From: a virus
Lineage: Duplodnaviria; Heunggongvirae; Uroviricota; Caudoviricetes
Length of the DNA: 23,171 nt
Strand: one strand, 5' to 3'
IMG/VR virus record: IMGVR_UViG_2531839128_000009
The notes under the pieces were generated by a model. It made no database searches. It was not told where the DNA came from and saw only the letters and a program-made list of their open reading frames with translations. This document shows, piece by piece, positions 1-12,942 of the stretch (its first letter is position 1; every line of letters begins with the position of its first letter). Position numbers and translations under genes: made by a program.

Positions 1-75
1 AAGGATAGAGGCTTTGTTGAATTTCAAGACACATTGGACATATTCAATGAACGAATGCAATCTCTAAAAAAATAA
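1..75 (+). CDS. possible 3' end of a gene starting upstream of the window (hypothetical)
   Basis: Frame is open from nt 1 for 24 codons (…LDIFNERMQSLKK) and ends at TAA 73-75. No start or RBS is visible because the 5' part would lie outside the window. Confidence 0.2.
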   Translation, partial: KDRGFVEFQDTLDIFNERMQSLKK

Positions 76-295
76 AGCCACTGAGATAGGGCTGCTCTCT
101 GTCAATTACCGCTCTTGGCACATAGCAGCCCTAGAAATGGTGACGTATAGTCATAGATGGTCGGTGGCAGGAGATGCAAATCATCTCATACAAAAATACG
201 TAAAATCAATAACGGCTAGAAATTATTCAACACTCGCACTATCGACATTTCACCAGCTAACCGTAGCACGTTCTTGCATACGACGCGCTACGGTT

Positions 296-850
296 TCATT
301 TATCTCCAACCGGAAACTTCTTATACAGTGTCGATATACCAACATCATAGATGATCGCCACCTTCTGGCGAGGAACGCCTGATGCAATTAATCGCCCGGC
401 CTGCGCCCATTGTTCTGGTGTAAGTTTGGGACGACGTCCACCAATTCGTCCCTGTGCGCGAGCAGCTTCCAGTCCAGCTTTTGTTCGTTCAATAATCAGT
501 TCTCGTTCCATTTCAGCCAGGGCACCCATCACATGAAAGAAAAAACGCCCCATCGGTGTGCTGGTATCAATAGCATCCGTCAGGCTGCGAAAATTAACGC
601 CACGTTCGCGCAACTCCTCAACCAGAATGACCAGATGCCGCATACTACGCCCCAGCCGATCCAGCTTCCAGACAACCAGAGTGTCACCTGCCGATAATGT
701 CCTGAGCAGTTTTTTCAGTCCCGGCCTTTCGGACTTTGTACCGCTTATCTTGTCTTCAAAAATCAGCTCGCATCCTGCACAGTTCAGTGCATTACGTTGT
801 AGATCTGTGTTCTGGTCATTTGTTGACACGCGTACATAGCCAATAAGCAT
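296..850 (-). CDS. serine-recombinase DNA invertase, Hin/Gin/Pin/Cin family
   Basis: Translation begins MLIGYVRVSTNDQNTDLQRNAL…, with the catalytic-serine N-terminal motif, the conserved VVWKLDRLGRS and FFHVMGALAEMERELIIERT blocks and a C-terminal HTH tail, as in small DNA invertases. Start ATG 848-850 has a GGGGAG SD 7 nt upstream; the track ORF starts 12 codons earlier at another ATG. It sits directly outside the left crossover site. Confidence 0.93.
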   Translation of the reverse strand: MLIGYVRVSTNDQNTDLQRNALNCAGCELIFEDKISGTKSERPGLKKLLRTLSAGDTLVVWKLDRLGRSMRHLVILVEELRERGVNFRSLTDAIDTSTPMGRFFFHVMGALAEMERELIIERTKAGLEAARAQGRIGGRRPKLTPEQWAQAGRLIASGVPRQKVAIIYDVGISTLYKKFPVGDK

Positions 851-904
851 GGTAGATCTCCCCGACAAAAGCAGGAATGATGCCATTTGCTTGTTATTTC
901 TGCA

Positions 905-930
905 TTTTCATAAACGTTGGTTTGGGAGAA
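905..930. other. left crossover site of the invertible segment (gix/hix-like, 26 bp)
   Basis: Plus strand TTTTCATAAACGTTGGTTTGGGAGAA; its reverse complement TTCTCCCAAACCAACGTTTATGAAAA matches the right site at 14 of 14 positions in the inner half plus central AA. Imperfect dyad around a 2-bp core, as in Din-family sites. Confidence 0.75.
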
Positions 931-1212
931 GGTGCTAACTGGGTTATGTTACCTGGAGGAATGATAATTCAGCGTGTTTATCTTGGATTTCCTGTCGGCA
1001 CCAATGTAAGACACATAACTTTCCCCCGGTCGTTTACAACAACGAACTATTCAATCTCAATTAACTGGAATGATATCGGTACTGCAACAACTGAAACACA
1101 ATCTCCAGCAAATGTGGCGGTTGTTCATCAAACAAAATCATTAACAGGGGCCAGCATCTGGCAGGCAGGTCCCGGGGGATTTAATGTGGACATTATAGCG
1201 GTGGGGTATTGA
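919..1212 (+). CDS. alternative (currently silent) tail-fiber C-terminal variable segment
   Basis: Open frame reading through the left crossover site in the same codon phase as the tail-fiber constant region. Both variable regions begin with GLGEG, encoded by the conserved inner half-site. After inversion it would fuse to fiber codons 1-119. Stop at 1210-1212. Confidence 0.7.
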
Positions 1213-1213
1213 T

Positions 1214-1642
1214 ATGTACGTATGGAGCGCTAAAGCAAATGGCTTTTTCCCCATAGCGGAGAAAGAAAAATTTGAGGCATCAGGTATGTGGCCTGATGAT
1301 GGTGTAATAGTCAGTGAAGAAGAACATAAAAAGTTATTTATGGATATTCCACCAGGAAAACAGATTGGAACACAGAATGGAAAACCAGCACTGATAGATA
1401 TTCCTCAGCCGACCAAAAAGGAATTAATCGCTATTGCTGAAGTTAAAAAATCCCAATTACGGGAAAAAGCTGACAGTGAAATATCCTGGCGTCAGGATGC
1501 TGTTGATGCTGATATCGCAACTGATGAAGAAACTTCAACTCTCACCGAATGGAAGAAATACCGTGTGCTGCTGATGCGTGTTGATACTTCAACAGCACCC
1601 GATATTGAATGGCCTACGCCTCCGGCAGTTCAGGCCAGATGA
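1214..1642 (+). CDS. tail fiber assembly protein, alternative copy
   Basis: 142-aa ORF directly after the alternative fiber segment. Its C-terminus [15 protein letters not shown] matches the C-terminus of the minus-strand copy ([15 protein letters not shown]). Confidence 0.8.
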
Positions 1643-2219
1643 CATCCGGCGCGGTGCTGGTATCTGTTACCGTCACCGCGTCAATGTAATCCAGCACGGC
1701 GTTAAGTCGGGTTGTTTCTGCCTGCGTCAGCTTCCGCCCGGCCTGTAATTTCAGTTGAATCAGACTGATGGAAGCCATTGCAGTATCCATCAGCGACTGG
1801 CGCTGTGCTTCTGCTGCATCTACTGCGGCGCTATGCTGTGCCTCGGTATCCGTCACCCATTTCTCACCATTCCATTTATCGTATGGCGTTAACGGGGCGA
1901 TAGTGGTTGTATTATCAGGGTAATCCCCCGGAGCTGTGATTTCTTTTGATTCTCCCGTTTCGGTGTTATAGACAACTTCACCGCGATGATCTGGCACATA
2001 TTCCCATGAGTTAAAATCTGCCGAACGGCAGATTGCATAACCAGCCTTATGTGTGCCAGGAGCATCTAAACAGGAATATGCGGGGATACCGACACCCACA
2101 GCAAGATATTCAATTGATGCAGAAATATACTCCCGTGTCTCACTGTCATAGTTATAAACGGTAATCTCTCCTGCCTTTGTGGCAATAAATTTATTATTTA
2201 AGATGGCGTTATACATCAT
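1614..2219 (-). CDS. tail fiber assembly protein, copy matching the expressed fiber
   Basis: 201-aa ORF; its start codon overlaps the fiber stop (ATGA). The 3' end overlaps the convergent copy by 29 bp. Confidence 0.85.
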
Positions 2220-3091
2220 GCAGCCCTCACAATGTAATTAAATGAAATATTACGTGGGCGTGTCTCTGCTGCACCGACAATACTGGTACTCAACCCCGTT
2301 GCCGTTCGTTTGTTATTTTTATTTCCTTCAATCAAACAGTTGTAATCATCATTACCAATTAACGAATTGGTGGCATCAATACTGTCCGGGGACAAGGCAT
2401 TAGTTGTGGAACTTAAAGTCAGCATCTCGTCTGAACTTGGAAGATTTTTTAATGGTGTTTCATTGCGTGAAATACCCGCGTAAAAAAAGGACTCATGCCT
2501 GTGAGCTTCAAAAGAGTCATCCTGAAGACTTAGCAAGGCTCGCCCCGCATCCACTCCACGTCCATCATCCCAGCCACGAATAAATTCACCGCGTAAATCA
2601 GGCAATTTATTGGTCGGGTAAGCCTTTGCCAGTTCCGGGTATTCTTCAGCAGAAAAAGCCGCACCATTGCATTTCAGCCAGCCTGTTGGCGGAGTGGCTG
2701 AAGGCCACGGAACAGGGACCCCAACCGGTAATGCAGAGCCTTCTCCCAAACCAAGGTTTTCGAGAGCCGTTTTCACCGCGCCATCCGATTTGATATCACC
2801 AAACGGATTCTTGCGGCTCAGGTATTCAACAGCAAACCCCGATCCCAGCAATTCAACAAAACCGGGCAGATCACCATTATCAAGCACATCCCGTTGCGTT
2901 TTGTCACTTACAAACTGGGCCAGAGCTGCAGCAATAAAGCTGGCCTGCCGAATAACCTTATTGACTTGCGCACTGGATGCTTTCCCTGCTGTAAATCCGG
3001 ATAAAAGCGCAGGCAACGCTTCCCATTCCTCCTGCGACATAACATTGGCATTCCGATCAGTTGCAAACGCTTTAAAGTCATTTTTCGCCAT
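2216..3091 (-). CDS. tail fiber protein (constant N-terminal part plus currently expressed variable C-terminal part)
   Basis: Translation MAKNDFKAF…NLGLGEG…[10 protein letters not shown]…[17 protein letters not shown]…[13 protein letters not shown], a collar-type fiber C-terminus as I recall it from P2 H / Mu S-like fibers. Start ATG 3089-3091 overlaps the upstream stop (TGATG); an alternative ATG lies at 3107-3109. The right crossover site lies inside the gene at codons about 118-125. Confidence 0.85.
2741..2766. other. right crossover site of the invertible segment (26 bp), inside the tail fiber gene
   Basis: TTCTCCCAAACCAAGGTTTTCGAGAG: half-sites flanking a central AA, with the inner 14 nt identical to the left site in inverted orientation. 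Confidence 0.75.
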
Positions 3092-3771
3092 CAGAGTAAT
3101 ACTCCCCATGCCCCTACATCAAAACCACTGATGAATTCGTTATCCATATCAAAACCAAAAAATTTTGAACCTTCCGATGGAGTTTCCACCGAAGGTGTTT
3201 CAATGCCACCCGCCCAAACCCCGGCGGCTTTTACTGTGAGATATCCCTGTTTAATTGCAGCAATTAACTCACGCGATACATCTGAAATATCAGTATCAGG
3301 AAAGAGCCAGACCGATATCGTCATGTCCTGGTTATCGACTATCTGCATTCGCAGTCCGGATCCTGCTGTCGCCGCGTCAAGAATTGCTGGAAGCGAATCA
3401 TTCCGTCCGTCCCAGTTATTAATCGCAATCTTCGCTTTAAGGATGACACGATAAGTTTCATCGCTGAGGTACATGTATCCGGAATCAGGATCGTATGGCC
3501 CCTGCCATACACCATGATCATATCCAAGCCCGTCGGTATCCCAGCTGAAATAGACACCTGAGATAGGCTGGCTGACAACACGGCTACGTCCGATCCACAA
3601 TCCAAGAATGTCAAGTTGCACACCAACCGCAGAGTCAATATCAAATGCAGTAATCAGCCCTCTGGTGGCAGCCGCAACATCAATAAGCGGCCGGGTCATC
3701 AGATCAACATGTGCAAGAAATTTAGGTTTGGTGGCGTGGTAGTTCGTGATCAGTTCGGTGTATTTGCTCAT
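3091..3771 (-). CDS. baseplate / tail protein (gpI- or Mu gp48-like by position)
   Basis: 226-aa ORF immediately upstream of the tail fiber gene, overlapping neighbours on both sides. Assignment is from synteny only. Confidence 0.65.
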
Positions 3772-4967
3772 GACTCCACCGTTATAACGATATTTTCCGG
3801 TGTACAGGACGCAGATTCGTTGTATCTGATATCAATGTTTGATGACGACAAAGCCCCCGGGGATTTCCCAATCGTCAGTTCCTGAATATCGTAATAGCGT
3901 GCATTCCCGCCACTCACCACGCCAAGATTCGCCGGTGAGTAAATGCGACTTAAAAGGACCGAATCACCAATCATCAGACTATTGATATAGTCGGAAATAG
4001 CCTGCTGGATCTGCTGCCCTATCTGTGAGGTATAACCCGTAAAAACTTTTAATTTAATCCGGGCATAAACAGGTACATCACTGGAACGCGAGAATTTGAT
4101 TACATGGGGATTGCCGTATTTATCCGGAACCGTAACGGATGTTCTACCGTGAGTGGCTGTCCCCTGGCCTTTATTCCCTCTAATAGCCTGAGCAATATCC
4201 GTCACATCACCGCCATCCACAATTACAGCAACAGAGTGTGGCGGTAACCCGTTACCGTCCTCCGAACCAGTATCGTTTTCATAGAGTTTGTGGCGGGTTA
4301 CACCGGTAACATTAGAAACAGCACCATCCAGTGCTTCAAATGGGGTTATTGATGGCAACGCAACACTTTGCGACTGGCGGATACGTAACTCAGCATCAGT
4401 TTCTGCCGGAGAGCCAACAGTAGCCGCAGCAGGATTAGTTACCGAAACCCAGCCACGGGTTGGCGTATTAATTTCAGTGATAGTTCCAGCCAGCGCCGCC
4501 ACTGCACCACTGACGGAACATGTTGCGGTCGCCATCACTGTACCATCCACGCCGACCACCACTGAAGCAGGCAAACGCCATATCACATTATTACTGTCTT
4601 TCACGCTGCCATTAATGATGGTTGTTCCGGCAGTTCCTGTAAGAAGCAAATCAACCGTAGAGTTCGTCGCGCCTTTACGTGAAATACCATTTATTTTCAC
4701 GTTACTGGTCAGTGCAGCCCCATAGCCGGTTGCCGGTGAAAAACAGTTGTAGACAGTTATCGCCATATTATTGGCATCATGAATCGCCAGCGCCGTCAGA
4801 GCCACCATCTGGCCGTCTTTGCTGTCCGGTTCGAGGTAGGCATCACTGCCATAAATCTGCTGAAAATAGCTAATCAGGGTGCTGAGTATCGTCTGATAAT
4901 CAGGCGCACTGATCCCCTCCGCGGTTACCTTTGCAGATAAACCGAGAGAATCAAGGTTCAGAGCCAT
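3768..4967 (-). CDS. baseplate J-like protein (baseplate wedge)
   Basis: 399-aa ORF with size and position of gpJ / Mu gp47-type proteins. Start overlaps the upstream gene. Confidence 0.75.
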   Translation of the reverse strand: MALNLDSLGLSAKVTAEGISAPDYQTILSTLISYFQQIYGSDAYLEPDSKDGQMVALTALAIHDANNMAITVYNCFSPATGYGAALTSNVKINGISRKGATNSTVDLLLTGTAGTTIINGSVKDSNNVIWRLPASVVVGVDGTVMATATCSVSGAVAALAGTITEINTPTRGWVSVTNPAAATVGSPAETDAELRIRQSQSVALPSITPFEALDGAVSNVTGVTRHKLYENDTGSEDGNGLPPHSVAVIVDGGDVTDIAQAIRGNKGQGTATHGRTSVTVPDKYGNPHVIKFSRSSDVPVYARIKLKVFTGYTSQIGQQIQQAISDYINSLMIGDSVLLSRIYSPANLGVVSGGNARYYDIQELTIGKSPGALSSSNIDIRYNESASCTPENIVITVES

Positions 4968-5320
4968 TACGCCTCCGATGTAACAGTCGTTATTCCATAG
5001 AGAGTGTCGATTTCAGCGGAAAACATGACACGTCGGGTCGTGGTATCCACCGTCGTATTGAAAGAGAGGATTGATTTAACGCCCCGCGTTTCCAGAATGC
5101 GTTTTCTGATCGCCAGGTTGTAAGTTTCCGGTTTTTGCCTGCCCAGCACGGACTGGATCCACGGAGTCCCCTCGGTGGTGTCGAGAAACCATTGCCCATA
5201 CCACAATTCGAATCGCGTTTTTACCGCCTGCGCCACGGCCTCCAGTGAGTTAATCAGCCAGGTGTCATCACCGCTGCCAAAGGTGTAATCGCCATCGGCG
5301 TCTTCACGTCTGTATCGCAT
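4967..5320 (-). CDS. small baseplate protein (gpW / gp25-like by position)
   Basis: 117-aa ORF between the spike-like and J-like genes. Assignment is from synteny. Confidence 0.6.
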   Translation of the reverse strand: MRYRREDADGDYTFGSGDDTWLINSLEAVAQAVKTRFELWYGQWFLDTTEGTPWIQSVLGRQKPETYNLAIRKRILETRGVKSILSFNTTVDTTTRRVMFSAEIDTLYGITTVTSEA

Positions 5321-6072
5321 TAGTTTACCCCATCGGTATTGCTTCCACCGCGCTGAACACCGCCATGAGTGTGCGTATCATCGATTGGCTTGCCGTTAGC
5401 CTTAACGCTCCCCAAGAACTCAACAGCACCAGTGATTTTTGAAGCCACACCAGAAACAACAGACCCCACCATGCCCCCCATCCAGGTTAACAGGCCATGA
5501 ATGGTTACTTTCTCAGAAAAATCAGCCAGAGGGGCAACCACATCAAGACCACCCGGGGCGACAATTTTAATTTTCCGGGTATCAGGATTAAGCTCAAAAT
5601 AGGTGCTGCCGTCGTCACTACGCAACTGTGTGGCACTGATATTAATACCGCTAATCTTCCTCGCCTGCGACTGGGGACCGGCTATACAAAACGCATCCGA
5701 TAAATCATGCATTCTGTCATCGACCGGCTCCTGTATCCCACCGCTCTGCCACCAGAAATCAATACAACGATCGGCAAAAACGACAAGACACTCATCCCCG
5801 GCTTTAACCGGAAAAGTCAACGTACAGCCTCCGCCGCGCGGAAATACCACTGGCACATCCACCAGCAACGGGTAATTTTTGGTAATGCGGTTACCGTCGT
5901 TATCCTTTTCAACCGAACGGATAGCTGGCTGTACAACCGCCGTCACCGCGTCGGGATCGAATGACTGAACAATGCCAGGCAAGGCGACACGGATCTGGTT
6001 CTTTGTTGTTTCCCGTTCAGATTTGAATGTTTCGGCAAGGTCGCCGCTGCGGGTCTGGTCAGATACTGCCAT
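5320..6072 (-). CDS. baseplate spike / gpV-like protein
   Basis: 250-aa ORF with a GGAG SD 8 nt upstream of ATG 6070-6072. Position and size fit a baseplate assembly V / central spike protein. Confidence 0.7.
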   Translation of the reverse strand: MAVSDQTRSGDLAETFKSERETTKNQIRVALPGIVQSFDPDAVTAVVQPAIRSVEKDNDGNRITKNYPLLVDVPVVFPRGGGCTLTFPVKAGDECLVVFADRCIDFWWQSGGIQEPVDDRMHDLSDAFCIAGPQSQARKISGINISATQLRSDDGSTYFELNPDTRKIKIVAPGGLDVVAPLADFSEKVTIHGLLTWMGGMVGSVVSGVASKITGAVEFLGSVKANGKPIDDTHTHGGVQRGGSNTDGVN

Positions 6073-6091
6073 TTAGTAGGCTCCAGAAAGC

Positions 6092-6116
6092 AAAAAACCC
6101 GCCGGGTGGCGGGTTC
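6092..6116 (-). terminator. rho-independent terminator after the small membrane-protein gene
   Basis: Perfect 7-bp GC-rich stem ACCCGCC / GGCGGGT (6097-6103 and 6108-6114) with a 4-nt loop, followed on the minus strand by TTTTTTG. It lies 16 nt past the stop of 6132-6371. Confidence 0.75.
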
Positions 6117-6131
6117 ATTATTGAAGTTTCA

Positions 6132-6371
6132 TTACTGCTTGTTTGCTTCTAACGCTTCAGCTATTCGGCGAAGATACTCATTGTTTTTAAATGAAACCAT
6201 GATGCACTCAAAGAATATTCGGCAAAATACAGCACATAACAAAAGCACTAAAGCGCCAGCAGCCTTCCCATTAACAAACGTTATAATGGCGGCAACAACC
6301 AGAAGTAACATTGTGATGCCATACAGAACGTTGATGATTTTTGGAGTTATTAATTTATCAAATCCGAACAT
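6132..6371 (-). CDS. small two-TM membrane protein (inserted accessory gene, function unknown)
   Basis: 79-aa ORF with two hydrophobic stretches (IINVLYGITMLLLVVAAIITFV and AAGALVLLLCAVFCRIFFECIMV) and an AAGGA SD 9 nt upstream of the ATG. AT-rich by eye relative to flanking structural genes. Has its own promoter-like element and terminator. Confidence 0.8.
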   Translation of the reverse strand: MFGFDKLITPKIINVLYGITMLLLVVAAIITFVNGKAAGALVLLLCAVFCRIFFECIMVSFKNNEYLRRIAEALEANKQ

Positions 6372-6407
6372 GCGACAAATTCCTTATCGTGAAAGTAGAA
6401 GTACCAC

Positions 6408-6436
6408 ATTATAATTACGAGTGATTAATCAACAAT
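6408..6436 (-). promoter_or_regulatory. candidate sigma70 promoter for the small membrane-protein gene
   Basis: Minus-strand TATAAT (plus 6408-6413, perfect -10 consensus) with TTGTTG 16 bp upstream as a weak -35. Lies in the 53-bp gap between the two accessory genes, about 35 nt upstream of the ATG. Confidence 0.5.
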
Positions 6437-6766
6437 CTTTTTGCATGGAAAGGAACCGATGATTTTCGGCGCATCCATGCTGTTCTGCAGCAGTTGGACA
6501 TTCAGGAATCGCGTTTCGGTACCAGGGCGACGAATGTATTCAAAGCCGTAGTTGTTACCGTCTTTGGCAGGCATAAGCCCCATGTCTACTTTCAAACCAT
6601 TGGTACCCAGTTCGGTGATTTTTTGAGAGGTAACTCTTTCACCGTTGATTGTCGATAACTCGCCCTGGTTTGCAACCATAGTGTAGCCACCGCATTTAAC
6701 CGTGAAGCCATCCGCCCACGCGCTGCACGCAGAAAAGACAGCTAACAGAAAAATAATACCCCTCAT
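6425..6766 (-). CDS. small secreted / periplasmic protein of unknown function (accessory gene)
   Basis: 113-aa ORF with N-terminal signal peptide MRGIIFLLAVFSACSAWA followed by DG (AXA-type cleavage; a lipobox reading is less likely). Mature part has two Cys (CGG near the N-terminus, FPCKK near the C-terminus). AGGGGA SD; start is 3 nt after the upstream stop. Confidence 0.8.
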   Translation of the reverse strand: MRGIIFLLAVFSACSAWADGFTVKCGGYTMVANQGELSTINGERVTSQKITELGTNGLKVDMGLMPAKDGNNYGFEYIRRPGTETRFLNVQLLQNSMDAPKIIGSFPCKKIVD

Positions 6767-6769
6767 TGC

Positions 6770-7831
6770 TCATCCCCTTTGCAAAGCCGATTGCGTATAC
6801 AGATCCGCCGCGCCACGCGCTTCGCACATCATATCCATGTACCACGCCTGGCCTCTTGTATCGCCACTGTACATAATCCCGCGCACAATATAAACGCCAT
6901 CCGTTGCGATGCTGGCAGGCTGCGATGTGGTGCCGCTGAGCGTGATATTTCCGTCCGTGTTCTGGTCGGTGATCTGACCACCAGCCATCGCAATATCGTT
7001 GTTCGACAACGCGGTACGATAGACGGAAGCCTGATCCAGCTGAATGAGCCCGTTAACCCGGATGTTCGGATTAATAAGAGCGCGGACGTTTACGCCGTTG
7101 CCGATGGTCTGCTGCGGCATGCCAATAAGCCCGGTAGCACTGTTGAGCACAATCGCTTCGTGAACATATTCATTAGTCGCCACCATCTGGCGCTGACCGT
7201 CCACGAATTGCCATGTTGCGCCACATTGCCCGGCTACGTTATCCATTAGATGCCGCGTCATGCCAAAGAGCACCCGCCCCCGGGGGAATACAGTAGCAGG
7301 CATTTCAGGCGTCAGGCCTTCGGTCGCACCTTTGGCTTCGAAGTCTTTCATCAGCGCACGGTTCACATCAGCGACCGTGTAACCGGCAGCCAGCGTCTGT
7401 GAGGTTATACTGGTGGCAAAAGCCAGATCAGTATCTGCTGCCTGAATCAGGACGTAGGAATCAACCGGACTGTCTTTTCCTGTGACCGAGTAGCGAATTT
7501 CACCGCTGAAAATCAGTCCGTAGTTGCGGCCATCTCTCTGGCCCACGTCCGCCGCGTCAACTTCCCGCACGGTCCCTACGTCGCTTGCTGACACCTCCGG
7601 CGCGATACCGTCGTAACCGGCAATCAGACGCACTTTCGAAAATTCCTGCCCGGTGATTCGGTTCACAGTATCTGCCGAGAGGTTATAAATTTTGATAGTC
7701 CCTACCCGGGACGCGCTGCTGATGTTGAACCAGTCGATCGTAAAGGTGACTTTGAAATCACTTAGCTCAATTCCCTGACCGTTCCCGTCCACAAGCTGCA
7801 GCTCGAAATGTCTCATCCAGTTCTGTGACAT
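6770..7831 (-). CDS. baseplate hub-like protein (by position and size)
   Basis: 353-aa ORF in the baseplate block downstream of the tape measure. Assignment is from synteny. Confidence 0.6.
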   Translation of the reverse strand: MSQNWMRHFELQLVDGNGQGIELSDFKVTFTIDWFNISSASRVGTIKIYNLSADTVNRITGQEFSKVRLIAGYDGIAPEVSASDVGTVREVDAADVGQRDGRNYGLIFSGEIRYSVTGKDSPVDSYVLIQAADTDLAFATSITSQTLAAGYTVADVNRALMKDFEAKGATEGLTPEMPATVFPRGRVLFGMTRHLMDNVAGQCGATWQFVDGQRQMVATNEYVHEAIVLNSATGLIGMPQQTIGNGVNVRALINPNIRVNGLIQLDQASVYRTALSNNDIAMAGGQITDQNTDGNITLSGTTSQPASIATDGVYIVRGIMYSGDTRGQAWYMDMMCEARGAADLYTQSALQRG

Positions 7832-7833
7832 GC

Positions 7834-8136
7834 TTACTCCGTTGATACCAGTAAATGACTGAGGCCGCCCAGATCAGTTTTCGTGGGATAATCCTGTGTG
7901 TTGTCATCGCAGACCACCACCAGCTTAAAACCAAGTCCCATACAGGCGTACTGCGCCAGCAGGTCAGCACCAGTGACGAGAGGAATACCGGAGATTACCG
8001 GCTCCCCTCTGTCGTTCTGCAGGTCCATAATCCAGTACAGATCGCGCCATATGATGCTAATCCGCCAGGTAACACCACCCAGGACGATGCTGAACTGCTG
8101 GTTGTCCGCTGTCAGCGGAATTTCCTGAATTGTCAT
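7834..8136 (-). CDS. small tail / baseplate protein (hypothetical)
   Basis: 100-aa ORF tightly packed between neighbouring tail genes on the same strand. Confidence 0.55.
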   Translation of the reverse strand: MTIQEIPLTADNQQFSIVLGGVTWRISIIWRDLYWIMDLQNDRGEPVISGIPLVTGADLLAQYACMGLGFKLVVVCDDNTQDYPTKTDLGGLSHLLVSTE

Positions 8137-8723
8137 TAGCCGCCCCCCAGTAATGACGCCACGTTACCCGTGATGCTTTTCAGCAGTGAAGTATCTGGAG
8201 GCTTGGTGGTTTTGTTGCCGCTGTTCTGTACCGCCGACGTGCTGGCCCCTTCCTTCATGTTGGTTTTATCCGCGACGGTAATCTGCTGCGTCCGGGAGAT
8301 AAGGACCTCCCTCAGGGTGAGGACGGCGGACAGGACGTTTTCGGTTGTCTTGTCCGTCGTCACTTCCAGCGCCCGGATCAACATGTTGCTGTACAGTCGT
8401 TTACCGGTTACCACATCGAAGGGGATACGGCTTTCCTGCAGATCCAGTAGCTCCTGATACGTCTGCTGAGGACTCAGGCCGAGCAGGCTGGTAGCCGTCA
8501 GATTACTGGCAAAATCCAGCAATGCGCCGCCACCGGCGAAACCAACCTCCATCACCACTTCTGACGGTTTTTTATAGGCATGATCAGCGACAGCGGCCCC
8601 AACCTCTACCGGATGCTCTGTTATTTCAAGCATATCTGTATGCTTCTCTGAAATAACAACACTGGGAACAATCATTCCTATTTTTCTGCTCTGCTGATGA
8701 AAAAGTGTAGAGAGAATATCCAC
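8136..8723 (-). CDS. tail protein following the tape measure (hypothetical)
   Basis: 195-aa ORF whose start overlaps the tape measure stop, same strand. Confidence 0.6.
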   Translation of the reverse strand: MDILSTLFHQQSRKIGMIVPSVVISEKHTDMLEITEHPVEVGAAVADHAYKKPSEVVMEVGFAGGGALLDFASNLTATSLLGLSPQQTYQELLDLQESRIPFDVVTGKRLYSNMLIRALEVTTDKTTENVLSAVLTLREVLISRTQQITVADKTNMKEGASTSAVQNSGNKTTKPPDTSLLKSITGNVASLLGGG

Positions 8724-10712
8724 TAACCCACCCTCACCTGATTACTTCGCATGACCTGAGCATTTGCAGACTGTTGCCGACGTGCAACCTCATTACCGAC
8801 AGCGTGCGGATCTCCACCACCGTAAATGTGGTAGGTATTTTGCTGGTTAACCTCTGTCATTTTGCCACTAATTCCCGCCACGGCAGCCTTATTAATCAGC
8901 TCTCGAGAATAGATATTTCTTCCATTCTCATGCTGGATAATGCTGCTCATCAATGCTGACATGGTTTGCGGATCGCTCATATTCAGGGCAGCCCGGGGAT
9001 CCACTCCCAGTCGTTGCGATACAGCCCTGATATACGCAGTTGTGTTGTTATTATCAGACGCAGGTGCCCAAGTAGAGATAATTTTCTCCACACTGTTTAT
9101 TCCCCGTCCGGCGTACAGCATTAACTGACGAGCAAGAGCCCGTAATCCATCAAAAGCAGTTTCAAATCTGGCAAATCGCCCGCCCGGGCGTTCAAGAGAA
9201 GCCCCTGCCTGACCAGCAAAATTAAGGTTTCCCGGATTGTTATTCCGTTCTCCTCGTTTCGTAGCCTGTGCATATTGTTCCGGCTCATCATCACCAAACC
9301 AGCCGCGTACCGTCCGGCCCACACTGCGGGGATCGAATCCCCAGTGCTCTTTAATCCAGTCGGCAGTACTGTTAGCGCTGTCTGTAACCATCGGCATCGC
9401 TGACGGATTTTCGCTGCCCTGATTAAGTATCTGTTTGCCGATGATGACGGCATCAGCCCAGCGGCCATCTTTGATAGCGTTGAGCAGGTCGGCGATCATG
9501 TTCAGCATTTTGCTGAATTCGCCCATCTGGTCGATGAAGTTGCTGAAATCCCACTTCAGGGACCATGATTTTGGGTCAATATTGAGCAGTTTCGCCAGCG
9601 CTTTCGCCAGTTCATTAACAGACCCTTTCAGGTCACGAACCATCTTCAGCGCGGCATCGACCTCCGGCTTCCACTTGCCCCAGTCAATCAGGCTGTCGCC
9701 GCCTTCCTTCCAGGTCTGATAGTCCTCCCACAGAAGGGCAATCCCCGCCGCCAGCGCGGTAATGAGACCAATCGGCGACATCCAGAACGTACTGTTCAGA
9801 ATGCGCAGCGCAATCGTCAGCGCGCCAAACAGCGAGATGAGCTCCCGCGTTTGCTTATCCAGCGATTGCCACCAGGTGATAAGGCTGGATGTTCCCTCAA
9901 TTAGCCTGAAGAACAGCCGCCCGATGATGTCTCCGATCGCCAGAATGCCTTTTATGGCTTTCGTCAGGGTCTGCTCGATACGAGGGAAGTTGTCCAGGAT
10001 ATGGCGGCGCAGGGTGTCCAGCGAACCCGCAAGCCCACCCGCAAGATTAGAGCCGATTTTGTCACGGGCCATGCCTGCCATCGCGCCGAACTCGCGCAGG
10101 GAGGTCATGAATTTGTTGGAGCTTCTGGCCGCCTCGTCAGCATTGAAGCCGATAGCTTTCGCCATTGCGCTGTACTGCCCGGAGCCCCCCCCCCACACCC
10201 CGGCGCATCGCCATAAGGGTATTTTCGTCAATGCCCAGCATCTGCGCATACTGGTTAGCCCGGTAATACGGCATGCTGCTGAGCTTCTGGCCGACGCCCG
10301 TAAAGATAGCGGCCATGTCGCGCATGTTACCGCTGGCGTCACGGGTCTGTACCCCCAGACGATTCAGAAATCCCTCCGCCCCGGGGTTATTACGGATAAA
10401 ACGGGCAAGGCTCTCCAGTGACCCGCGCGCAGCGTCCACGCTGCCGCCAACCTGCGAAACCGCATAGCCAATAGACTGAATTCCCTGGACTGTCGCGCCG
10501 GTGCGCTGTGACGCCCAGTAAAGATTATCCAGGCCGGAGGCGATCTTAGCCGTGAAGGCCACCACGGACAGCGCAGCTCCTTCAACGGCCAGTCCCATTT
10601 TGATGACATTTGCAGTTGTACCGGCGAGGACAGAACCGAACTTTTTCGCTCCTGCATCATCCACACTGAAGCCAAGCGAGACGAGGAAATCTTTAATAGT
10701 TTCAGCGTTCAT
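8723..10712 (-). pseudogene. tail tape measure protein, frame interrupted in a homopolymer tract
   Basis: Two overlapping minus-strand ORFs (10137-10733 and 8723-10342) in different frames both give tape-measure-like sequence, and switch frame exactly at the C10 run 10185-10194. Removing one base restores a continuous roughly 660-aa protein reading …MAMRRGVGGGSGQYSAMAKAIGF…. Start ATG 10710-10712 has a GGAGAGAGGA SD. Confidence 0.8.
10185..10194. repeat. C10 (G10 on the coding strand) homopolymer inside the tape measure gene
   Basis: Ten consecutive C counted on the plus strand; they encode Gly-Gly-Gly in either frame. A length of 9 or 12 would be in frame. Confidence 0.9.
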
Positions 10713-10947
10713 TATCCTCTCTCCATTTCTCAATGCGCCGCTGGTTATCCGCTTTTACCGCCAGATGGTCATTCAAGAGAGCAATGTCATACAAATCGAC
10801 AGAGCCATCTTTAAGTGCTGTATAGGGAATTAACCCGGCGTCAACCGGATTGAGAAGGTAGGACAGCCCGTCCGGCAGGCTGTTAAACGTCAGCCCTGTT
10901 GCAGGCTCTGCGTCGTGCTGGTAAGGGGTGTAGGCAAAAAATTTCCC
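10702..10947 (-). other. -1 programmed frameshift signal and extension frame of the tail chaperone
   Basis: Coding-strand GGGAAATTTTTTG (plus 10935-10947) contains two overlapping heptamers, G_GGA_AAT and T_TTT_TTG, in the zero frame 16 codons before its stop. The -1 frame is open from there for 79 codons to TGA 10702-10704, overlapping the tape measure start. Predicted fusion is about 210 aa. Confidence 0.7.
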
Positions 10948-11342
10948 AGCGAATCGGCGACCACCCGCGCCACCAGATGAAGCATGACCAGCAAGTCAAT
11001 ATCATCAAACATCAGTTCGCCCTGGGTAAATACCGGAACCCATCCGTCCATATGACGCCGCGACACCACCGCAAGACAGGGATGAATAATCGCATCGGTG
11101 TCATCTTCGGTCAGGGAAGACAGTTCCTCAGCGATACGCGGGAGCATGGTTTCAAACACCGGTTTTAACTGCTCGAATTTCACGGTGTCGATTTTGCCGT
11201 CAGCAGGCAAACGGGAGCGAATGCTCCCGAAATCTGACATCATTCCCGCCAGTACCGGCAGAAGTTTGCGGGTCACTTTCAGCTGGTCAAAAACGCTGAG
11301 TTTTGCCACGCGATATTTCACGCCTTTGATTTCGAATTCCAT
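10890..11342 (-). CDS. tail assembly chaperone (zero-frame product)
   Basis: 150-aa ORF between the tube and tape measure genes, the conserved position of the G/GT-type chaperone. Confidence 0.8.
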   Translation of the reverse strand: MEFEIKGVKYRVAKLSVFDQLKVTRKLLPVLAGMMSDFGSIRSRLPADGKIDTVKFEQLKPVFETMLPRIAEELSSLTEDDTDAIIHPCLAVVSRRHMDGWVPVFTQGELMFDDIDLLVMLHLVARVVADSLGNFLPTPLTSTTQSLQQG

Positions 11343-11345
11343 GCA

Positions 11346-11786
11346 TTAAAACTCCCCGAGAACCTGGTCAATCTTGCCGCAGTCAAACACCCACGGCATC
11401 GTATTACCGGTTTTAGCGTTGGCGTTATCCGGTTGTTTCTGGAACGCAACACTGCGTGCCGTGATGATGTCGCCGCTGACCTTGTTGCGGATCACGATAA
11501 CGTTATTCCCCCATGTGGCAGAAGACTGGCTCTGTGCGTTATACGCCAGCGACAATTTTTTATTTGTCGGTGATGTCTTCAGAAGGTTAACGGTAATCGT
11601 CCCGCTTTTATCTGCATGGAGACTGTGCATCACTTCGCCATCAGCACCGATGGTCATGGTGTTTTTAGGACCGCCCATCGCAACCACAATCCCCTCTTCA
11701 GAACTTGCAGAACCGTACCCGAGGTCAATCGAACCGGTCGGGCCGGTCAGCGTCGCAGTGACATCCATAAAAGAATAGGTAGACAT
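11346..11786 (-). CDS. tail tube protein
   Basis: 146-aa ORF immediately after the sheath gene and before the chaperone. Assignment is from size and synteny. Confidence 0.75.
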   Translation of the reverse strand: MSTYSFMDVTATLTGPTGSIDLGYGSASSEEGIVVAMGGPKNTMTIGADGEVMHSLHADKSGTITVNLLKTSPTNKKLSLAYNAQSQSSATWGNNVIVIRNKVSGDIITARSVAFQKQPDNANAKTGNTMPWVFDCGKIDQVLGEF

Positions 11787-11796
11787 TCACTTCCCC

Positions 11797-12942
11797 TTAG
11801 CGAACAACGTTAATCTGTACGTCAGCGTAATGAACCGCGCCTGCAAGTTTTATTGCAGCCTGAATCACCGGAGCCTTACGGGCTTCACGTTCTGATTGTG
11901 CCTGTTCATCCAGCGGCTGGGCGTATACGTAATAACCTTTGGGCAGCGTGTCACCTGATGACAACTGACCAAGGTCGCCACCGTTCCATACGCCCGGAGC
12001 AATCAGTCCATTCTGAACGGCCTGAGCCAGTGATTTTTCAACATTTGATAACAGTCGGGTAATACCGGCTTCAGTCTGGGGAACCTTCGTGGTGCTGGTA
12101 TAAAGCAGGTTATAGAGGTTGGTCTGCACATAATTCTGTAACCAGTCCAGGCCGTGGCGTTCATCAAAGAAATCGCCGTTAGCCATCACTCCCTGCTGGA
12201 GGATAGCTGTATCATTCTGGTAGTACACGAACACATTGCAGTTTTTTGCATCAAGTGCCGATGCCTGGCTGACTGTCAGTGTTTCATACCCGACACCCGG
12301 CTCCTGCTTAAACTTGAGCGTAATCGCGGTATTACTGCCATTGAAATTAACCGTGAATGCCCGGCCAAATGCAGATAACGCAGCGTATTTACTACCCGAT
12401 GAATATTGAATAAAACTGCGTGAATATCCGGCGGTTTTCAGTTTTGATGCCAAATCATCGCTGGATGCAGTCTGCAGGCATTTCTCATCGCTTGTCGTAA
12501 TCGCCAGAATACGGCTTACAGAAGAGGATTCGATCGCCGCAGCCACTTTCAGCCAGTCTGCATCCGGAATATCTTCATCGTCTGCAATCCCCAGCCCATA
12601 CCATGAAGTATAATCGAGCATGGCATTCACAGCCTGCTCCAGCGTCTCAGGCGTGGCCTGTTCGCTGTCTCCCTTCGTTTTCACCCAACGACCAACAAAA
12701 ACCTCCTGAGGTTTCGGTGATTGAGAGAAAAACACCTGCGCAGCCTTATATTCTGGTGATTCCACGCCAAAATCTTTTCCAATATCTTCCGCGGCAGAAT
12801 AACGGCGAATGCGCTCACTTACCGGAATGATTGTGGACGGGCCGAGAATGAGTAATGCACCAAAATTTCGCCCTGATGCTGCACGCGGCGACATGATCAC
12901 ATCAACATTAACAACGTTTGATACAGGCAAGCCCTGTGCCAT
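11797..12942 (-). CDS. tail sheath protein
   Basis: 381-aa ORF at the head of the tail block. Size and position fit a contractile sheath subunit. Confidence 0.8.

Follow-up and report, generated by a model that had tools for sequence, protein, structure and literature searches.

The Locus and Its Features

The present work concerns a 240-bp gene within a 23,171-nt stretch of viral DNA (Duplodnaviria; Heunggongvirae; Uroviricota; Caudoviricetes; IMG/VR record IMGVR_UViG_2531839128_000009), the whole of which is referred to here as the window. The gene encodes a protein of 79 amino acids (aa) belonging to the family DUF4282, and lies in the interval between the baseplate hub and central spike genes of a prophage tail operon. 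The window covers the late region of a temperate, myovirus-type prophage, with all structural genes on the minus strand and ordered from the terminase (~21458) to the tail fibres (~1614); the prophage itself, from E. coli, is a SEN34-like (Brunovirus) myovirus with lambdoid regulation. An initial annotation had described the gene as an AT-rich insertion between the hub and spike genes that encodes a protein with two transmembrane segments, carries its own expression signals, and was horizontally acquired. The elements it listed (the open reading frame (ORF), a TATAAT hexamer, an AAGGA motif, and a hairpin followed by a T-run) are all present, and the gene does occupy the hub–spike interval, but its direct upstream neighbour is a gene for a 113-aa protein, the hub gene being one gene further away. 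The features of the locus are:

6073–6446, minus strand: mobile cassette (moron unit) of ~375 bp, running from the last codons of the 113-aa gene through the promoter-like region, the DUF4282 gene and the terminator to the spike ribosome-binding site (RBS)
6132–6371, minus strand: DUF4282 gene, 79 aa, ATG start (evidence from Pfam PF14110, phrog_12129, 87 homologues and AlphaFold2)
6430–6435, minus strand: −35-like hexamer TTGTTG (3 of 6 matches), in the last codons of the 113-aa gene, just inside the cassette edge
6408–6413, minus strand: perfect −10 hexamer TATAAT, 36 nt upstream of the ATG, with a 16-nt spacer from TTGTTG
6381–6385, minus strand: Shine-Dalgarno sequence AAGGA, 9 nt ahead of the start codon
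6089–6116, minus strand: intrinsic terminator with a 9-bp stem (6 GC pairs) and an ACCC loop, then TTTTTTGCTTT
6770–7831, minus strand: baseplate hub gene (phrog_196 'baseplate hub', E 1e-88; weak Pfam E217_GP41 match), the left border of the slot
6425–6766, minus strand: gene for a 113-aa secreted (signal-peptide) protein (phrog_3443; RefSeq 'STY1065/STY2022 family phage-derived protein')
5320–6072, minus strand: central spike gene, gpV-like with an Apex motif (Pfam PF18352, E 5.6e-44; PF18946), the right border of the slot

Composition and spacing set the gene apart from the surrounding operon. It is AT-rich compared with its neighbours, as had been noted, and has the lowest GC of the 27 late ORFs (GC 0.375, and 0.388 at third codon positions (GC3), while the other 26 range from 0.46 to 0.57). 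Gaps of 53 and 59 nt separate it from the genes on either side, whereas the other late-gene neighbours overlap or lie no more than 14 nt apart, except for one gap of 41 nt and an apparent gap of 547 nt, which arises because the tape-measure gene call is frameshifted. Rfam and tRNA scans of the whole window gave no match, so that no known RNA element is present in its intergenic regions.

A Predicted Two-Helix Membrane Protein of the DUF4282 Family

Assignment to DUF4282 follows from the Pfam profile (PF14110), which the protein matches above the gathering threshold and across the whole domain (E 1.2e-10; 42.2 bits against a cut-off of 27; residues 2–71 aligned to profile positions 2–85 of 86). 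PHROG 12129, a family of unknown function, matches it end to end, and RefSeq E. coli genomes already name the 79-aa protein 'DUF4282 domain-containing protein'. A search of NCBIfam returned sub-threshold noise only.

The protein has two hydrophobic stretches, at approximately residues 12–33 and 38–60. An AlphaFold2 model built from a 58-sequence alignment (mean confidence score, pLDDT, of 87) shows a short N-terminal turn, a helix at 10–33 and a long helix at 37–78, the latter running ~18 residues past the second hydrophobic segment. Segments and helices together match the integral membrane hairpin of DUF4282 and bear out the two transmembrane segments first proposed for the gene at 6132–6371; the product is very probably a two-helix membrane protein. 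Judged by the positive-inside rule, it would most likely be located in the inner membrane with both termini in the cytoplasm.

There were 87 homologues at E values up to 1e-3, from Escherichia, Erwinia, Pantoea, Pectobacterium, Hafnia, Brenneria, Klebsiella, Raoultella, Cronobacter, Salmonella and others, with identities of 45–87% across at least eight genera. Between genera, synonymous sites are saturated (proportion of synonymous differences, pS, 0.64–0.95) and the proportion of nonsynonymous differences (pN) is 0.17–0.46; where it could be estimated, the ratio of nonsynonymous to synonymous rates (dN/dS) is ~0.14–0.30. This pattern indicates that ORF 6371–6132 is a real gene under purifying selection. 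An overlapping 102-aa ORF on the plus strand (6106–6414) was taken to be an antisense shadow, because all conservation is in the minus-strand frame.

Conservation is unevenly spread along the protein. In the family alignment (A1) the invariant residues are F4, T9, P10, Y17, E55, F61, K62, E65, Y66, L67, R69 and I70. A block of the form R51-IFFE-x5-FKNNEYLRRI is nearly fixed, with R51 almost invariant and E55 invariant, both lying within the second membrane helix, and an N-terminal juxtamembrane motif, FDKLITPKII, is invariant or nearly so. The hydrophobic membrane cores and the connecting loop of 4–6 residues vary freely.

Cassette Boundaries and Mobility

The boundaries of the cassette were mapped by blastn of window positions 5700–7100 against all loci of the hub–spike slot. 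Homology to other slot alleles stops at ~6438 (6427 or 6422 in some), a point 3 nt ahead of the −35-like hexamer and inside the final three codons of the 113-aa gene, and resumes in most alleles at 6115–6118, where the terminator stem has its outer base. Gene and putative promoter are therefore specific to the cassette, and the candidate promoter, lying wholly within this DNA, moves with the gene. The terminator and the spike RBS form the common right-hand junction of nearly all the slot cassettes. Besides stopping transcription, the terminator hairpin (6089–6118 of the window) may act as a shared recombination site for cassette exchange.

Evidence of recent movement came from three other loci (L068, L079 and L038), in which 6446–6073 is 99–100% identical despite diverged backbones, the body of the 113-aa gene being 62–63% identical and/or the spike gene 71–72% identical. 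Hence promoter-like region, gene and terminator move together as one block that was exchanged recently, and the idea of a horizontally acquired accessory gene is well supported by near-identical cassettes on backbones whose flanking genes share 62–72% identity. The locus also agrees with the moron definition of Juhala and Hendrix, as summarised in PMC3594210. It represents extra DNA between genes that are adjacent or differently filled in relatives, its base composition deviates from that of the neighbouring genes (GC 0.375 vs 0.46–0.57, the same contrast being seen in other contexts), and it has its own terminator, though the hairpin is common to other slot cassettes. In all probability, then, the feature is a mobile accessory cassette.

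A Hypervariable Cargo Slot

For a survey of the slot, the hub protein was used to fetch 80 IMG/VR contigs (hub at least 96% identical), and the hub and spike genes were located in each. The distance between them varies from 690 to 1861 bp among relatives. The comparison of related prophages, which had been proposed at the outset, did not find the ORF conserved in all of them with uniform composition; the slot holds at least 12 different cassettes, and of the 78 related slots analysed, from IMG/VR and phage records, 16 hold the DUF4282 cassette. Among 5426 complete E. coli genomes, 306 carry this hub gene, and 83 of the 306 contain the full 361-bp DUF4282 region. Strains DEC5E and FDAARGOS_1059 of E. 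coli have these 361 bp in identical form. The cassette is thus found in ~20–27% of relatives, and ~75% of near-identical prophages hold other cargo at the same place. The contents of the slot after the 113-aa gene are:

DUF4282 gene: 16 loci and the window
243-aa TPR-like protein and ~142-aa protein: 21 loci (e.g., L009)
266-aa protein and 131-aa protein: 11 loci
192-aa protein and 138-aa YafO-toxin-like protein (PF13957, E 1e-14): 9 loci (e.g., L029/L046)
184-aa transmembrane protein: 4 loci (e.g., L056)
100-aa protein and DUF2335 membrane protein (190 aa): 4 loci (e.g., L055)
241-aa lipoprotein, in place of the 113-aa gene: 4 loci (e.g., L058)
170-aa protein with an RNNLFH (HEPN-like) motif: 2 loci
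several singletons: 1 locus each

Different cargo is found at this place in the isolated phages SEN34, YP3 and vB_EcoM-606R2, and in phage GF-2 the hub and spike genes are directly adjacent. Most of the alternative cargo proteins have no Pfam or PADLOC match. On the evidence of these comparisons, the hub–spike interval is a hypervariable cargo slot. A defence role for it is unproven: of ten alternative cargo proteins submitted to PADLOC, one, a transmembrane protein, gave a weak match (PycTM-like). At one locus (L125, 4323–5447), the hub gene, 113-aa gene and DUF4282 cassette are followed by a 374-aa ORF and non-tail genes instead of the spike gene, which indicates a recombinant or rearranged prophage.

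The 113-aa gene is the first, semi-conserved occupant of the slot, and lies outside the DUF4282 cassette save for its last three codons. Its homologue is the first gene past the hub (3-nt gap) in 72 of 79 related slots, at 54–100% identity. The protein has a clear signal peptide, MRGIIFLLAVFSACSAWA|DG, and no PADLOC match. A secreted protein at a fixed place within a baseplate cluster is odd, and the 113-aa protein may itself be an accessory factor. On the other side of the cassette, the spike gene lies downstream of the terminator on the same strand, and is named 'membrane-puncturing spike protein' in RefSeq.

Homologues in Other Tail Modules

The DUF4282 gene is not restricted to this prophage family. 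Homologues of 65–68% identity occupy the same hub–spike slot in prophages of Pectobacterium, Erwinia and Hafnia, with a gene for a small secreted protein beside them in Pectobacterium (112 aa) and Erwinia (111 aa) and without one in Hafnia. Other homologues are located directly after the tape-measure gene, as in a siphovirus-type prophage of Klebsiella pneumoniae, a Salmonella myovirus remnant (9-nt gap) and the Edwardsiella phage GF-2 (no gap), and a Pantoea homologue is found in a prophage remnant beside gtrABC.

When IMG/VR was scanned with the family alignment, 79 loci were recovered, of which 39 are directly after a tape-measure gene, 31 in the hub–spike slot and 9 elsewhere. Tail modules have received the gene repeatedly, in most cases beside tape-measure or tail-tip genes. 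The identity of the upstream tape-measure proteins was confirmed with PHROGs for four representatives. The nine remaining loci include two between lambda-like gpI and gpJ genes, three at a lysis/terminase junction, and two in gtr regions. In the gpI–gpJ pair (L134 and L135, ~3396–4240), the DUF4282 gene adjoins a gene for a 132-aa lipoprotein within a lambda-like siphovirus tail cluster, a tail-tip slot that thus holds two small envelope-protein cargo genes.

A wider profile search of 1.84 billion representatives gave 564 clusters at E values up to 1e-3, mostly stand-alone proteins of 75–115 aa. A few proteins (P0113, of 507 aa, P0132, P0141, P0208 and P0217) contain 5–6 copies of the hairpin in tandem, which suggests that the DUF4282 unit is able to function in the membrane in repeated or oligomeric form.

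Transcription Signals

The terminator consists of the hairpin GAACCCGCC-ACCC-GGCGGGTTT at 6116–6095 followed by a T-run, the six Ts at 6097–6092 ending 7 nt ahead of the spike RBS. It is the top terminator-like site in window positions 1–12000, with a folding energy of −18.6 kcal/mol (z = −3.2 vs shuffles). A GC-rich hairpin with T-run lies ~5–50 nt past the homologue in all eight independent contexts inspected and in most of 48 divergent viral loci, and the dip in GC accompanies it in the same eight contexts and most of the divergent loci. A terminator private to the DUF4282 gene was rejected, because other cassettes of the slot terminate at the same hairpin.

Upstream, the spacing pattern TTG-N19–21-TATAAT occurs once in the window, at this site (0.44 expected), and TATAAT by itself is not enriched (6 observed vs 8 expected). 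TTGTTG-16-TATAAT is a plausible candidate promoter which is statistically indistinguishable from chance. The evidence for the terminator is robust, that for the promoter weaker.

Since the terminator is on the coding strand and 7 nt before the spike RBS, late transcripts have to pass it by read-through. In E. coli DEC5E the same prophage is laid out in lambdoid fashion: a gene for a DUF1133 protein occupies the place of Q, shortly before the genes for holin, endolysin and Rz. On the basis of HHpred, PMC8136144 gives DUF1133 as a Q antiterminator, and so read-through by antitermination is plausible.

Comparison with Known Systems

The locus invites comparison with the gp15 moron of phage HK97 (Juhala et al. 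2000; Cumby et al. 2012; reviewed in PMC3594210), the product of which prevents genome entry, the effect depending on the tail region of the phage that is excluded (PMC3594210). HK97 gene 15 specifies a 62-aa, one-helix protein and has an upstream gap of 57 nt and a terminator (GACCCGC...GCGGGTTTTTTTT) placed 12 nt before the start of the tape-measure gene. Both are small, AT-rich genes for known (gp15) or predicted (DUF4282) inner-membrane proteins, set in a tail operon near the genome-delivery genes and missing from close relatives, and both have an upstream intergenic gap and a GC hairpin with T-run immediately before the next tail gene. The proteins differ, gp15 being derived from YebO whereas that of the window has 79 aa, two helices and a DUF4282 domain. 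So do the positions, gene 15 preceding the tape-measure gene while the DUF4282 gene is found in the hub–spike slot here and after the tape-measure gene elsewhere. Expression in the lysogen and exclusion have been demonstrated for gp15; for the DUF4282 protein they are hypothetical.

The Imm protein of phage T4, a membrane protein of 9.3 kDa, blocks genome translocation by binding to the tape-measure protein in the membrane (bioRxiv 10.64898/2026.03.06.709160). It resembles the DUF4282 product in being a phage-encoded membrane protein of ~9 kDa, and its mechanism is a plausible model, but Imm belongs to a lytic phage, is expressed early in infection and is modelled with four helices.

Parallels also exist with lambda lom and bor and with cor of phi80, N15 and HK022, all accessory genes in or beside tail genes and described as prophage-expressed. 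The lom, bor and cor products are outer-membrane proteins or lipoproteins that act at adsorption, in contrast to the predicted inner-membrane hairpin of DUF4282. Pfam and PHROG scans of the 79-aa protein detected no homology to them. Temperate phages are also known to have hotspots for accessory and defence genes, such as those of P2 and P4. The slot described here is similar in its fixed position between conserved genes and its many alternative cassettes, but differs in lying inside a baseplate cluster and in a different phage family. Of the outer-membrane group, Cor excludes phages at the receptor step (PMC3594210).

Possible Functions

The best overall explanation is that of a moron cassette, expressed in the lysogen, which confers superinfection exclusion at the stage of genome entry, and we would put its probability at roughly 0.4. 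The cassette would be transcribed in the lysogen from its own promoter and transcription would stop at the terminator, leaving the downstream baseplate genes silent; during lytic growth a Q-modified late transcript would pass through. The protein, which presumably sits in the inner membrane with both ends in the cytoplasm, could then block the entry of incoming phage genomes by acting on the inner-membrane channel built by the arriving tape-measure protein and tail tip, or on a host entry factor in that membrane, in a mode like that of HK97 gp15 and T4 Imm and without relation to either. Entry blocking ranks first among the candidate functions, tentatively, by analogy and by position. The link of the homologues to tape-measure and tail-tip genes supports it without amounting to proof.

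A good number of observations weigh against this explanation. The remote homology and structure searches suggested at the outset placed the protein in DUF4282 and gave a hairpin model, but brought no match with an annotated function. Foldseek with the AlphaFold2 model found nothing at E <0.1 in PDB or among viral predicted structures, which is uninformative because a two-helix hairpin is too simple a fold. Pfam matched no annotated exclusion or defence family, and PADLOC-DB 2.0 (E up to 1) no defence-protein model. Among PHROGs, no match annotated as a known exclusion family (Imm, SieA, SieB, Cor, Ltp) was found, just phrog_12129 and phrog_16782 (both of unknown function, E up to 0.1), Imm not having been compared pairwise. 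Profile comparison by hhalign of alignment A1 with HK97 gp15 gave a probability of 0.2% (E 0.26), and a relationship to gp15/YebO was rejected. The own expression signals first claimed for the gene do exist as TATAAT, AAGGA and terminator, but the terminator is common to the slot and the promoter does not rise above chance: its match was equalled in 18% of shuffles of the local AT-rich 120-nt upstream stretch. No positionally conserved sigma-70 promoter exceeded shuffles upstream of the homologues (8 contexts and 14 after-tape-measure loci), and a family-wide promoter is not claimed for this reason. Many of the after-tape-measure loci have gaps of 0–16 nt, which suggests co-transcription with the late genes and not expression in the lysogen. 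The family reaches beyond phages, with one homologue in a non-prophage chromosomal locus that has its own terminator. Finally, prediction puts the most conserved parts of the protein in the cytoplasm and leaves a periplasmic loop of just ~4–6 residues, unlike what would be expected of a simple periplasm-facing blocker.

A broader proposal, and a slightly more doubtful one than entry blocking by the 79-aa protein itself, is that DUF4282 hairpins form a widespread, hitherto unrecognised phage-borne family of inner-membrane proteins acting on tape-measure-mediated genome delivery, either as superinfection exclusion or as immunity to the phage's own tape-measure protein. In Enterobacterales, at least five tail-module types unrelated to one another would have captured them independently beside their tape-measure and tail-tip genes, with the variable helices and loop setting specificity and the invariant cytoplasmic motifs serving as a common effector or anchor.

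Two alternatives are less likely than entry blocking, to a similar degree. The first is a function during the phage's own lytic growth that is linked to the tape-measure protein, the hairpin being made with the late genes and either protecting the inner membrane from the phage's own pore-forming tape-measure protein, in the manner of colicin immunity, or timing lysis like a holin or antiholin. The position right behind the tape-measure gene in 39 of 79 viral loci, many of them with gaps of 0–16 nt and no promoter-like signal above shuffles, would be consistent with this, as would the size, two membrane helices and charged C-terminus of the protein, which resemble class II holins. However, the gene is dispensable, given that ~75% of near-identical prophages hold other cargo, and in the window phage the tape-measure gene is three genes away. 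As a class II holin proper the protein was rejected: its topology is compatible, but the gene sits in the baseplate cluster, a complete lambda-type cassette of holin, endolysin and Rz genes is present elsewhere in the prophage, and no holin family was matched in Pfam or PHROGs.

The second is a lysogenic-conversion factor that would use the conserved cytoplasmic motifs to bind and control a membrane protein of the host, such as a transporter, sensor or protease. It fits the distribution of conservation, which falls on the predicted cytoplasmic juxtamembrane motif and C-terminal helix, as well as the homologue in a non-prophage chromosomal locus with its own terminator, that in the gtrABC conversion region, the 564 profile clusters of mostly stand-alone small proteins, and a weak match of the 79-aa protein to the YbhQ inner-membrane family. 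Such a factor has no known host partner, and would leave the bias towards tail-tip and tape-measure genes (70 of 79 viral loci) unexplained.

It is more improbable still that the protein is an abortive-infection or otherwise toxic membrane effector, a hairpin that oligomerises and depolarises the membrane upon infection. Toxin-like cargo does occur in the same slot (the YafO-like protein and the transmembrane protein weakly like PycTM), the near-invariant R51 and invariant E55 lie inside the second membrane helix, and versions of the domain with 5–6 tandem copies exist. Yet this is a single gene with neither sensor nor antitoxin partner and no PADLOC match, and a constitutive pore former would be costly to the host, whereas 83 complete genomes maintain the cassette stably. 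That the ORF is mis-called, or a passenger without function, in an intergenic region prone to recombination might be suspected from the very short gene and its antisense shadow (6106–6414, plus strand), but is effectively refuted by the 45–87% identity over at least eight genera with saturated synonymous sites, low pN and invariant motifs, and by the Pfam match above the gathering threshold.

Novelty and Significance

The moron concept and the RefSeq naming of DUF4282 proteins are already known. In the literature searched, no paper mentioning DUF4282 was found and the family has no assigned function, and the ST64B transcriptome paper (PMC7067206) reports no locus in the hub–spike slot. As far as could be found, the association of DUF4282 with tail modules and tape-measure genes, the hub–spike slot as a hypervariable cargo site of this prophage family, and any function of DUF4282 are undescribed.

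Prophages alter their hosts chiefly through morons, the products of which mostly have no known function. As a class of element the cassette is ordinary, but through it a first function for a DUF could be sought cleanly, cheaply and with good controls: the gene is 240 bp long, 83 complete E. coli genomes contain it, and copies of the same prophage with other cassettes provide natural isogenic controls. Should the entry-blocking explanation be correct, it would give a first function for this Pfam DUF, and a third unrelated small inner-membrane guard against the tape-measure channel, after HK97 gp15 and T4 Imm, which would point to a general strategy. With its 12 or more cassettes, mostly unannotated, the hub–spike slot is also a compact place to seek new prophage accessory and defence genes.

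Other Features of the Prophage

The tape-measure gene of the window is split into two ORFs (8723–10342 and 10137–10733) by one extra base in a 10-nt homopolymer at 10185–10194, a run of C on the plus strand (G10 on the coding strand). An in-frame, 35-nt version is found in 60 related loci, and the 36-nt version just in the window and in L004, which derives from the same source contig. Either the prophage is tail-defective or the extra base is a homopolymer sequencing error. At the left end, window positions 194–1895 match the Pin-type invertase and alternative tail-fibre assembly genes of the DEC5E prophage, and constitute an invertible host-range segment.

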